Origin: Candidatus Dojkabacteria bacterium
Lineage (GTDB): Bacteria; Patescibacteriota; Dojkabacteria; B142; OLB20
Length of the DNA: 64,000 nt
Direction: 5' to 3'
Assembly: GCA_035444565.1 (NCBI GenBank)
Contig: DAOMOX010000002.1
Location: 8,013 to 72,012, forward strand
The position numbers and the translations under genes were made by a program. Of this stretch, positions 2,273 to 7,037 are shown in pieces (positions within the stretch are counted from its first letter, which is position 1; each line of letters starts with the position of its first letter). A model generated the notes under the pieces. The model saw nothing but the letters and a program-made list of their open reading frames with translations, was not told the DNA's origin and did not search any database.

Positions 2273-2742
2273 AGTCCTAATTTTTCAATGATGTTACTCG
2301 AGGAGAAATTATCAATTTTTTCAATAACTATTAATTCTCCACCTGCTCTTTCAATTATAGACTTTTTGTTTTCAATTCCAGAATCTCCTTTAACCACCGC
2401 AAGGTATTTAGGCTTCATTTGTAGTACGAAGTCTCTCAATTCTTCCCAAGATGATTTCCATTTATATACATAATCAATTGTTCTTACATAAGACAATGCT
2501 TCTGCCCGCTCGTCTTGAGAAAATATTGGTCTATTTAATCCTTTTCTTCTTTTTATTTCCTCATCACTTAAAATAACTGTTAATATCTTTACTGAAGGTT
2601 TTAATATTGATTTAGTTTTTGAGAAAAATCTTAAATGGCCAAGATGCAGAACATCAAAGCTGCCCGTAATTAGGGCAACTTCGTGTTCTTTAAATAACTT
2701 CAATACATCTTTTTCGTTAATTATTTTTGACATTAACCACAT
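2269..2742 (-). CDS. HxGH-motif cytidylyltransferase-like nucleotidyltransferase (RfaE/HldE domain II-like, ADP-heptose synthase-type adenylyltransferase)
   Basis: GSFDVLHLGHLRF (HxGH motif), SDEEIKRRKGLNRPIFSQDERAEALSYVRTIDYV and KGDS align to the HldE C-terminal domain / TagD-like cytidylyltransferase fold. The start overlaps the stop of the upstream tandem-NrdJ gene. Confidence 0.55.
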   Translation of the reverse strand: MWLMSKIINEKDVLKLFKEHEVALITGSFDVLHLGHLRFFSKTKSILKPSVKILTVILSDEEIKRRKGLNRPIFSQDERAEALSYVRTIDYVYKWKSSWEELRDFVLQMKPKYLAVVKGDSGIENKKSIIERAGGELIVIEKIDNFSSSNIIEKLGL

Positions 2743-5700: not shown

Positions 5701-7037
5701 GGAGCAATTGAACTCATCGTTGCATTTCTGACCTTTCTTCCCATTTCGTCCCATTTGCTCCCTTCAAATCCCGGGAAAACGCCTCTTTCGGTAGCTAATC
5801 TTTCTGATTCTTTTGTAGATGCTTCTTGAATATATCCGATAATTTTCTTAGTAAGATTAACTGCTTTGTTACTATTGTATGCGATTCCCATTTTGTAGAA
5901 CATGCTACCAAGACCCACAACTCCTAAGCCGAGTTTTCTAGTTTTTTCAACTTCATCGGCAATTTTCTTTAGGGGAAAATCACTAAGATCAATCATATTG
6001 TCGAGAAAGTGAGTCGCTGAATATACAGACTTCTCAAGTAAATCCCAATCTATATCAAAATTACCATCTTTTTCCACTAAATGCGTAGGAAGGACAATAG
6101 AACCTAAGTTACATGACTCATAGGACCTCAAAGGTTCTTCTCCGCAAGGGTTTGTTGCTTCTATAACGCCAAGTGGTTTTGTGGGGTTAGCGTTTTGAGT
6201 AGTATCTAAAAAGAATAAACCCGGGTCTGCACATTCCCATGCTTTTTCACAAATAAGGTCGAAGACCTCCCTTGCTCTTAAGGATTTAACTTTCTTTCCA
6301 TTTCTAGGGTTGATAAGATCGTATTCTTCATCTTCACGAACAGCATTCATAAATTCATCAGTGATTCCAACAGAAATATTGAAATTTCTAATCGTATCAT
6401 CTTGGCCTTTGAGATTAATAAAATTGATGATATCTGGATGATTTATATTAAGAATTGCCATATTTCCTCCACCTCTTTTCTTTCCTTGCAAGACTTGATC
6501 AAATGCTTGCGAAAAAGTTTTAATGAAATGAATCGGTCCTGCTGCAACATTTGGTGTACCTCCAACTTCATCACCCTTTGGTCTAATGTGTGAGAAATTG
6601 AAACCTGTTCCGCCATTGTTTTTCTGCACCAATGCAGCTTCTTTCATGGTATCGAAAATCGATTCTAAATTATCCTCAATCGGCAATACAAAACACGAGG
6701 AAAGCTGACCAGTACCATCAATATTATTTCCTGCTTCATATAAAACTCTTGAACCGGGTAAGAAGCGATTTTCAGACATAATCTGATAGAACTCCTTAGC
6801 TGTTCGTTCGACAACTCTTTGTTTCCTGGCGTCAGAACCCTTGACGTATTTTGAATCTTCAGAGGCCATTGCAGTTGCGACTCTCCAGAACATTTGTCGT
6901 GGGGTTTCGATCGCTTCTCCCTTAGAATCTTTTAGTAAATGACGTTTTTTCATCACCTCAAGAGAATTTGGAGCTATGTTTGGTTCGGGAAGCTCTTTTG
7001 GGGGATCCACGAGGCGTTGCTTATTGTTAGTCGACAT
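2733..7037 (-). CDS. nrdJ: Class II (adenosylcobalamin-type, NrdJ-like) ribonucleotide reductase with TWO complete tandem catalytic domains in one 1434-aa polypeptide, plus a C-terminal beta-hairpin/B12-type domain and a Cys4 zinc ribbon
   Basis: Domain 1 (aa about 20-600) has [31 protein letters not shown], APTGT and ends [11 protein letters not shown]. Domain 2 (aa about 615-1195) has the same landmarks: [47 protein letters not shown]. The C-terminal extension has [37 protein letters not shown]...GKSG and the terminal CPECG....CILCRSCG. Confidence 0.85.
   Translation of the reverse strand: [1434 protein letters not shown]

Follow-up and report, generated by a model that had tools for sequence, protein, structure and literature searches.

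The large subunits of ribonucleotide reductases (RNRs) are normally symmetric homodimers. The class II enzyme RTPR (NrdJm) of L. leichmannii provides the 'dimer' interface of the specificity site within its single polypeptide; it has one active site and an insertion of ~130 amino acids (aa) that mimics the interface. In the non-monomeric RNRs, the specificity sites are formed only at the four-helix-bundle interface, and loop 2 connects the specificity site at this dimer interface with the active site (PMC4728125). Some genomes hold two class II enzymes of the NrdJd type, only one of which has a C-terminal domain rich in cysteines (CRD) (PMC5704485). Here we describe a gene from a stretch of 64,000 nucleotides of Candidatus Dojkabacteria (contig DAOMOX010000002.1; hereafter, the window), in which a single open reading frame (ORF) encodes two complete NrdJ cores followed by one CRD. 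We consider it probable, though by no means secure, that this protein is a natural single-chain NrdJ heterodimer having two active sites that are not equivalent and a single tethered reducing tail, in which we infer that the two cores pair with each other.

The ORF lies on the minus strand at positions 2733–7037 of the window, as do all the parts of the fused gene described below. It starts with an ATG and encodes 1434 aa plus a stop codon with zero internal stops, which corresponds to a protein of ~163 kDa. The translation is 100% identical to an annotated protein (P0001) of a Candidatus Dojkabacteria metagenome-assembled genome. An earlier note, made from the letters of the window, had placed the ORF at exactly these coordinates, leaving the strand unstated, had read two complete NrdJ catalytic domains in it, and had asked for a domain parsing of the translation. 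The parsing agreed with this reading: Pfam found Ribonuc_red_lgN (PF00317) and Ribonuc_red_lgC (PF02867) twice each and a single TSCPD at residues 1235–1327, and from NCBIfam NrdJ_Z (TIGR02504) spans residues 26–600 and PRK08665 spans 611–1434. All the motifs quoted in that note were present at the expected residues, namely SSCFVLP at 113 and SKCLVLP at 698, NPCGE at 296 and 881, ESCNLG at 307 and ETCNMG at 892, APTGT at 445 and 1044, and CPECG at 1409.

The N-half (residues 1–600; 5238–7037) is a complete NrdJ core without a CRD, and carries its radical loop NPCGE at residues 296–300 (6138–6152). It is joined by a short, polar linker (residues 601–618; 5184–5237), predicted to be disordered, to the C-half, a second complete NrdJ core (residues 619–1196; 3450–5183) with its own NPCGE loop at residues 881–885 (4383–4397). 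A C-terminal domain follows the second core only, as the earlier note had described. It starts with the TSCPD domain (PF12637, 79.8 bits; residues 1235–1327; 3057–3335), which is the first part of the CRD, continues with an acidic and variable tether of ~80 residues (1328–1408; 2814–3056), which has low predicted confidence and no consensus in the family alignment, and ends in a six-cysteine tail (residues 1409–1434; 2736–2813).

By the tests of sequence models, fold and catalytic residues, the fused protein is a member of the class II RNRs. The whole protein scored 1230 bits with TIGR02504 (cut-off 400) and 1643 with NF006417 (cut-off 961), and NF005010, a model of the NrdJ subfamily, gave 1220 (cut-off 1125). 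One class I model, the generic alpha model TIGR02506 (NrdE_NrdA), passed too (611 versus a cut-off of 341), with a score that is summed over five stretches in the two cores and is about half of those of the NrdJ models. The remaining class I alpha models, the class Ia/Ib-specific ones included, were below their cut-offs on the fused protein, and no class III model was listed in the NCBIfam results. The N-half aligned to the T. maritima NrdJ structure 1xje at E = 2.7e-107 and the C-half at E = 6.7e-90, and the target-normalised template modelling (TM) scores of the halves against T. maritima NrdJ were 0.82–0.85. In a search of the PDB, restricted to single chains, no chain spanned more than one half (query-normalised TM-score ≤0.44). 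The fused enzyme is predicted to use adenosylcobalamin (AdoCbl), without an NrdB or activase partner; NrdB-like or NrdG-like genes were found neither in the gene cluster nor among the annotated ORFs of the window.

Next, we examined the catalytic residues of both halves. Alignment to T. maritima NrdJ (C134, N320, C322, E324 and C333) placed the corresponding residues at C115, N296, C298, E300 and C309 in the N-half and at C700, N881, C883, E885 and C894 in the C-half, and all these ten positions were invariant in 117 of the 117 fused homologues. Likewise invariant in both halves (108 homologues) were the Asp of the effector site (D122/D707) and the Arg that binds phosphate (R152/R737), as were the NPCGE loop and the APTGT phosphate loop across 108–117 sequences down to 44% identity. 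The full catalytic apparatus, which had been claimed for both halves, is present in each, and no essential residue is lacking from either domain on alignment. The mean within-family distances of the N- and C-halves were 0.62 and 0.61, respectively. By these comparisons, both the cores are under equal purifying selection, and neither half behaves like a decaying pseudoenzyme.

The fusion has been kept across a lineage of the Patescibacteria. In a search of 5.8 billion proteins, we observed full-length fused homologues with the same domain order in more than 115 clusters (1370–1670 aa, down to 44% identity), which derive from NCBI, ENA, JGI and Logan assemblies, including contigs of 0.3–1 Mb. 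When the search was re-seeded from the distant member P0241, only a handful were added, the most distant being 39% identical to that seed, beyond which the matches went straight to canonical NrdJs of ~750 aa. The size of the family is ~130 clusters at 90% identity, the number in which the same fusion, for which a search of related genomes had been suggested, is now found. Every named source of the fused proteins belongs to Patescibacteria (Dojkabacteria/WS6, Kerfeldbacteria, Andersenbacteria, Parcubacteria group and 'Patescibacteria group'). Within the window itself, the DNA around the junction (5150–5300) is continuous and in frame, and the halves are 41% identical over ~600 aa. As the halves are only 41% identical, no collapsed tandem repeat or assembly duplication is possible. 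The earlier note had named a frameshift, a stop or an assembly artefact at the domain junction as what would speak against the fusion; the in-frame DNA, the divergence of the halves and the more than 115 independent clusters show none of these.

We also compared the ORF with long nrdJ genes that contain inteins. Among the best 150 matches in a search of 50%-identity representatives (1.84 billion), P0075 and P0241 were the sole true tandems, and the other long multi-stretch matches were single NrdJs with inteins at residue 116, 144, 185 or 298. In such true intein-bearing NrdJs, the coverage of the query is split at one of these four positions, is never doubled, and there is no second NPCGE. 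An intein was rejected for the window ORF, which has no intein domain by Pfam and has every motif in two full copies. The domain scan and this contrast bear out the view that a second RNR core accounts for the extra length. No account of a tandem NrdJ was found in the searchable literature, in searches that were in part poorly targeted, or in the full texts of Loderer 2017, Lundin 2010 and Burnim 2022, which fits the earlier note, where the architecture was not known as a described one. The fused proteins are already in the public databases under generic NrdJ names.

To describe the origin of the two halves, we used an alignment of 557 trimmed columns, which contained 80 canonical single-core NrdJs from diverse bacteria and archaea, taken as outgroups from a scan of genome contigs for the spread of the fusion, in which the matches listed were mostly ordinary single-core NrdJs, along with 108 N-halves, 108 C-halves and 108 proteins of a third, solo type, the gene of which lies upstream of the fused gene. 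The mean identity on these columns was 44% between the N- and C-halves, 49% between the N-half and the canonical enzymes and 46.6% between the C-half and the canonical enzymes. In a neighbour-joining (NJ) tree with 100 bootstraps, the C-halves were monophyletic in 90 and the solo proteins in 99, the N- and C-halves were sisters in 0, and the N-halves formed a clade that also takes in one unfused Patescibacteria protein, encoded at locus L005. A quartet test on the group means gave (N, canonical / C, solo) in 189 of the 200 resamplings and the quartet with N and C as sisters in 11. The tree is distance-based and has short internal branches, and its exact topology is tentative. On the basis of sequence comparison, these results point to the joining of two paralogues that had already diverged. 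The distances, the bootstraps and the quartet test exclude a recent tandem duplication. Hence, 'covalently duplicated', if taken to mean a tandem duplication, did not survive as a description of the protein: the halves are further from each other than either is from canonical NrdJ.

The locus L005 (5427–11177) comes from another Patescibacteria genome, isolate JTS-AC14, where the genes are unfused: it has nrdR, a CRD-bearing NrdJ of 793 aa, a 169-aa ORF and a CRD-less NrdJ of 683 aa. The CRD-bearing protein is only ~33% identical to the C-half, and the CRD-less one nests within the clade of the N-halves. This locus is like the window in having nrdR, one CRD-bearing and one CRD-less N-like NrdJ, whereas it differs in having the latter two as separate genes, in the opposite order and with the 169-aa ORF between them. 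Such an arrangement may represent the state before the fusion or that after a fission.

We then compared specificity loop 2 of the different cores. In the E. coli class Ia RNR, Arg298 of this loop is required for all the substrates and the Arg298Ala enzyme is dead, while Gln294 hydrogen-bonds CDP and UDP, and the Gln294Ala enzyme loses CDP/UDP activity and retains that for ADP/GDP; this Gln is not universally conserved (PMC4728125). We observed that the Arg position is invariant in the canonical NrdJs, the N-halves, the C-halves and the solo proteins. The Gln position differed. It is Gln in 77 of the 80 canonical enzymes and in 107 of the 108 N-halves; among the 108 C-halves it is Gly in 74, Thr in 33, Asn in one and Gln in none; and in the solo proteins it is Asn in 107 of 108, in a loop that is one residue longer. 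In the fused protein of the window, loop 2 of the N-half (residues 183–193; 6459–6491) is of the canonical type with Gln184 and Arg188 kept, and that of the C-half (residues 767–778; 4704–4739) is divergent, having Gly769 in place of Gln and retaining Arg773. Each paralogue, then, has its own fixed loop 2, a pattern that would be expected of subfunctionalised partners and not of interchangeable copies.

The CRD of the fused protein (residues ~1200–1434) follows the pattern of the CRD-bearing NrdJs, which is 150–220 aa ending in six conserved cysteines. It departs from the pattern of one CRD per core: there is one CRD for the two fused cores, and the solo core is also without one. The tail has the motif C-x2-C-x9-C-x2-C-x2-C-x4-C, in which all the six cysteines are at least 90% conserved, in place of the 'Cys4 zinc ribbon' that had been assigned to it. 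The first five have the spacing implied by the numbering Cys-920/923/933/936/939 of the NrdJ CRD (compared with PMC5704485), and by analogy the tail may comprise four zinc ligands and a redox pair. An AlphaFold2 (AF2) model of the C-half with the CRD (mean predicted local distance difference test, pLDDT, 85; predicted TM-score, pTM, 0.73) had a folded TSCPD, with block-mean pLDDT mostly of 77–93, and a small β-ribbon bearing the six tail cysteines. Disordered stretches were seen at residues 1202–1220 and 1335–1400, the latter of 66 residues (724–789 of the construct; pLDDT <50).

The four cysteines of the TSCPD domain, present in 39 of 39 canonical NrdJs, are lost in 33 of 35 fused proteins (residues 1241, 1268, 1302 and 1316), being replaced by QFTV in the Dojkabacteria type and by YFGI in the other lineage. 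CCCC is retained only in the P0086/P0241 lineage, the solo protein of which also has a TSCPD; the terminal six-cysteine motif is kept everywhere. The tail cysteines of the NrdJ CRD are the electron entry point, the CRD-less NrdJ core is catalytically competent with dithiothreitol, and the CRD is able to reduce an active site in a subunit other than its own (PMC5704485). As the CRD can reduce the active sites of other subunits and the tether here is long, it is plausible that one CRD on a long tether is a way to serve two or three cores.

The segment between the two fused cores is flexible and variable. AF2 gave pLDDT values below 50 for residues 600–615, and the junction segment of the homologues, aligned to residues 588–632 of the query, is 44–99 aa long, which implies linkers of roughly 17–70 aa. 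In ~20 fused homologues, an insertion of 172–187 aa is present exactly at the inter-core junction (query position 613), with a weak Pfam match to Ham1/ITPase (PF01725) in most of them. The carriers include P0034, P0065, P0067, P0069, P0071–P0073, P0075, P0077–P0080, P0083–P0085, P0087 and P0089, and the insertion is seen at locus L003 (8001–12815). If the Ham1 match is correct, a nucleotide-pool-sanitising domain would be embedded in the linker.

The third core is encoded by the solo gene (8402–10180, minus strand), which specifies a CRD-less NrdJ of 592 aa (Pfam; TIGR02504, 581 bits) whose loop 2 (LNRGAVRHAGHM) is its own and in which NQCGE replaces NPCGE. The solo core shares 41% identity with the C-half and 37% with the N-half. 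The catalytic residues are invariant in its 108 orthologues, which have NQCGE or NLCGE where the other cores have NPCGE. The solo gene was found upstream of the fused gene in four of four distinct related loci: L001/L002 (the same place on two records, at 47% identity with the protein of the window), L003 (which has the insertion in the linker), L084 (Kerfeldbacteria) and L085. In addition, for 44 of the 120 fused clusters the largest contig is equal in size to that of a solo cluster, and these are most likely the same contig. In L085 (P0086 lineage), the solo NrdJ (5814–7970) is 718 aa long and has a TSCPD with four cysteines, without the six-cysteine tail.

From these observations we propose the following. 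Two long-diverged NrdJ paralogues would have been fused into a CRD-less N-core, an 18-residue disordered linker and a C-core with the sole CRD. The fused cores would associate with one another via the usual four-helix-bundle interface (αA/αB), and this pairing would create an obligate heterodimer in which neither the two specificity sites nor the two active sites are equivalent. With its loop-2 Gln retained, the N-core may behave as a canonical four-substrate site, and the C-core, with Gly/Thr at that position, may resemble the E. coli Gln294Ala enzyme and be biased to purines. The six-cysteine tail, on its disordered tether of ~66 residues, would re-reduce the disulfides in the active sites of the two fused cores and, perhaps, in that of the solo core. 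Intramolecular pairing is favoured because the specificity sites need the interface and the effector-site residues are kept in both halves, because the linker is flexible, and because the unfused relative L005 has just two NrdJ genes.

Several points weigh against this proposal. The earlier note had suggested AlphaFold modelling to see whether the halves pack like an NrdJ dimer, and the outcome was mixed. AF2 of residues 1–1200 with 89 homologues gave a mean pLDDT of 87 and folded each half, with the linker (600–615) and loop 2 of the N-half (184–186) disordered; the relative placement of the halves was not confident, since the pTM of 0.56 is that expected from two well-folded halves of undefined mutual orientation. 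Intramolecular packing is, therefore, not confidently predicted. An odd number of cores (three) also permits other pairings, and long-branch effects are possible in an NJ tree with short internal branches. The purine bias of the C-core would be an extrapolation from a class Ia point mutant, at a Gln that is not universally conserved. In S. nassauensis NrdJd, the cross-talk of the CRD between subunits is weak in plain dimers (3–7%) and efficient only in tetramers and hexamers, and the CRD-less enzyme is monomeric with a weaker affinity for effectors (PMC5704485). As the cross-talk in plain NrdJd dimers is weak, it may not be guaranteed that one tail serves both the cores, and as the CRD-less S. 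nassauensis enzyme is monomeric, the pairing of CRD-less cores may need help.

The main rival is that the fusion is a scaffold and not an intramolecular dimer: the cores would pair with the solo protein or with the matching core of another chain, for example as (fused)2(solo)2, and the single CRD would serve its CRD-less partners. We hold this to be unlikely, yet it has to be taken seriously. In the window and in all the four related loci, the solo gene is upstream of the fused one, there are three cores with one CRD, efficient inter-subunit electron transfer was found only in tetramers and hexamers (PMC5704485), AF2 gave no confident packing of the N- and C-halves, and the linker length is unconstrained, even the 172–187-aa insertion with its weak Ham1 match being tolerated. 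Against this, the covalent linkage gives a very high local concentration of the sister core, which makes intramolecular pairing the default for a flexible linker, and the unfused L005 has two genes, one CRD-bearing and one CRD-less, which suggests a unit of two partners. We regard it as improbable that one of the fused cores is a pseudoenzyme, that is, a non-catalytic regulatory or structural partner that completes the dimer interface like the insertion in the monomeric L. leichmannii RTPR. The N-half has no CRD of its own, loop 2 of the C-half is non-canonical and the TSCPD cysteines are gone in most family members, all of which would suit it, but across 108–117 sequences neither half shows any change in the catalytic residues, NPCGE, APTGT or the effector-site residues, and the halves evolve at equal rates. 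This disfavours such a partner, as pseudoenzymes normally lose residues of this kind.

It is very improbable that the long ORF is a polyprotein or yields two products, by proteolysis of the linker or by internal initiation, so that ordinary separate NrdJ subunits exist in the cell. The linker is disordered and variable, and in the window it contains M608 after a purine-rich stretch. However, M608 and its upstream sequence are unconserved in the homologues, there is no conserved cleavage motif, and the frame stays fused in ~130 clusters, although a stop codon and a ribosome-binding site would be trivial to evolve. We found no conserved internal start codon at the junction in the window or on comparison of the homologues, and an internal start codon with a Shine–Dalgarno sequence yielding a separate C-half was rejected. 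There is practically no chance that the long ORF is an artefact of assembly or annotation (a collapsed duplication, a chimeric join or a missed stop). Its unusual length is the sole ground for such concern; the 41% identity leaves nothing to collapse, the junction DNA is in frame and the same architecture recurs in independent clusters from four assembly sources. The divergence of the halves and these clusters already refute it.

The single-chain heterodimer may also be part of something larger. As a speculative and rather doubtful extension, the fused and solo genes together could encode a three-core RNR machine, in which a division of labour partly replaces allosteric switching: the hard-wired loop 2 of each core (Gln, Gly/Thr or Asn) would direct it to a different subset of ribonucleotides, and one swinging six-cysteine arm would recycle all three cores in a defined hetero-oligomer. 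If true, such an RNR would be naturally and permanently asymmetric, and would balance deoxynucleotides in symbionts with tiny genomes in a new way.

The fused gene is part of a cluster on the minus strand, with the order nrdR, solo NrdJ, a 150-aa ORF, NUDIX hydrolase, the fused gene, a nucleotidyltransferase-like gene, recO and a cytidylate-kinase-like gene; the gaps between these genes are ≤38 nt, or they slightly overlap. The first gene, nrdR (10198–10671), encodes a Zn ribbon and an ATP-cone by Pfam. Neither Pfam nor NCBIfam gave a match for the ORF of 150 aa (7950–8402), the start codon of which shares the last base of the solo stop codon; at comparable positions, L003 has an unannotated ORF of 205 aa and L005 one of 169 aa. 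The NUDIX hydrolase gene (7076–7942; Pfam and NCBIfam) lies between the 150-aa ORF and the fused gene. Its product of 288 aa has the NUDIX fold at residues ~9–130, and the C-terminal ~150 aa are without a clear family match. L084 has nrdR and a NUDIX gene (155 aa) in the same order as the window. The nrdR gene heads the cluster in three of the five fused loci inspected (the window, L084 and L085), and it is also first in the unfused L005. In L001 (and L002, the duplicate record) and in L085, the fused gene adjoins a gene for a CobA/BtuR corrinoid adenosyltransferase (PF02572), which is in line with an AdoCbl enzyme. Two nucleoside diphosphate kinase genes and the CobA/BtuR gene are found near the solo NrdJ of L085.

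Upstream of nrdR, we observed a 16-bp palindrome resembling an NrdR box, ACACAAGCTGTTGTGT (10705–10720), 34 nt from the start codon. It is the sole match with one mismatch to the box pattern ACACWANATNTWGTGT in the window. A second, weaker box-like sequence (a half-site) is located at ~10737–10752, ~32 bp further upstream, beside a TTGACA hexamer. These box-like sequences suggest that the whole nrd gene cluster may be autoregulated. Promoter-like sites in a scan of the gene cluster were not above chance, and terminator-like sites numbered 11 as compared with a shuffled mean of 5.8, all but one of them being on the plus strand.

Elsewhere in the window, two adjacent giant ORFs on the minus strand, at 19591–30771 (3726 aa) and 15297–19541 (1414 aa), had no Pfam match. 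The minus-strand gene at 46587–48383 encodes an unusual fusion of a class II aminoacyl-tRNA synthetase of the Asp/Asn/Lys type (tRNA-synt_2 and OB anticodon domain) with a C-terminal YbaK-like editing domain (PF04073). A tRNA-Leu (anticodon TAG) at 15060–15142 on the plus strand was the sole Rfam/ARAGORN match in the window.

Half-site reactivity and the cross-subunit communication from specificity site to active site are hard to dissect in RNRs having identical sites. If the single-chain heterodimer is true, each site could be mutated and assayed separately, as the sites are distinguishable by sequence, and it would offer a direct test, in a class II enzyme, of whether the choice between reducing pyrimidines and reducing purines is made by the loop-2 Gln. 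Genomes of ~1 Mb devote ~6 kb to three NrdJ cores, which suggests that deoxynucleotide supply and B12 scavenging are of great importance for these episymbionts. As the annotation pipelines label the fused proteins as ordinary NrdJ, the architecture stays hidden. The fused NrdJ should be of interest both to RNR enzymologists and for the biology of the Candidate Phyla Radiation.

Among the known systems, the intein-containing NrdJs (e.g. of the PRK08332 type, and many metagenomic ones) likewise have long nrdJ ORFs of 1000–1650 aa, but each of these is one RNR with split coverage. The RTPR of L. leichmannii is also a single chain, but has an interface-mimicking insertion where the second unit here is a whole catalytic core; the fused protein scored 111 bits with the monomeric-type RTPR model TIGR02505 (cut-off 340) and 20.7 with the RNR-II insertion domain PF21995 (threshold 27). 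In P. aeruginosa NrdJa+NrdJb, the core and the CRD are likewise separable modules (PMC5704485), but this is a fission of core and CRD, the opposite of a fusion of two cores. The dimeric NrdJ of T. maritima (1XJE, 3O0O) and the canonical NrdJ of ~750 aa (PRK08665) have the same fold, the same catalytic residues and the same effector-site Asp and Arg, and the C-half with its CRD matches PRK08665 end to end. Canonical NrdJ is a non-covalent homodimer, whereas the fused protein has two non-identical cores covalently joined, one CRD per two cores, a C-core that has lost the loop-2 Gln, and a TSCPD that has lost its cysteines. The CRD-bearing NrdJd shares with it the six-cysteine tail, with an inferred role as an electron shuttle (PMC5704485). 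NrdJd is a homo-oligomer with one CRD per chain (PMC5704485), whereas here the CRD-less and the CRD-bearing paralogues are one polypeptide, with a third, CRD-less paralogue encoded in the same cluster.

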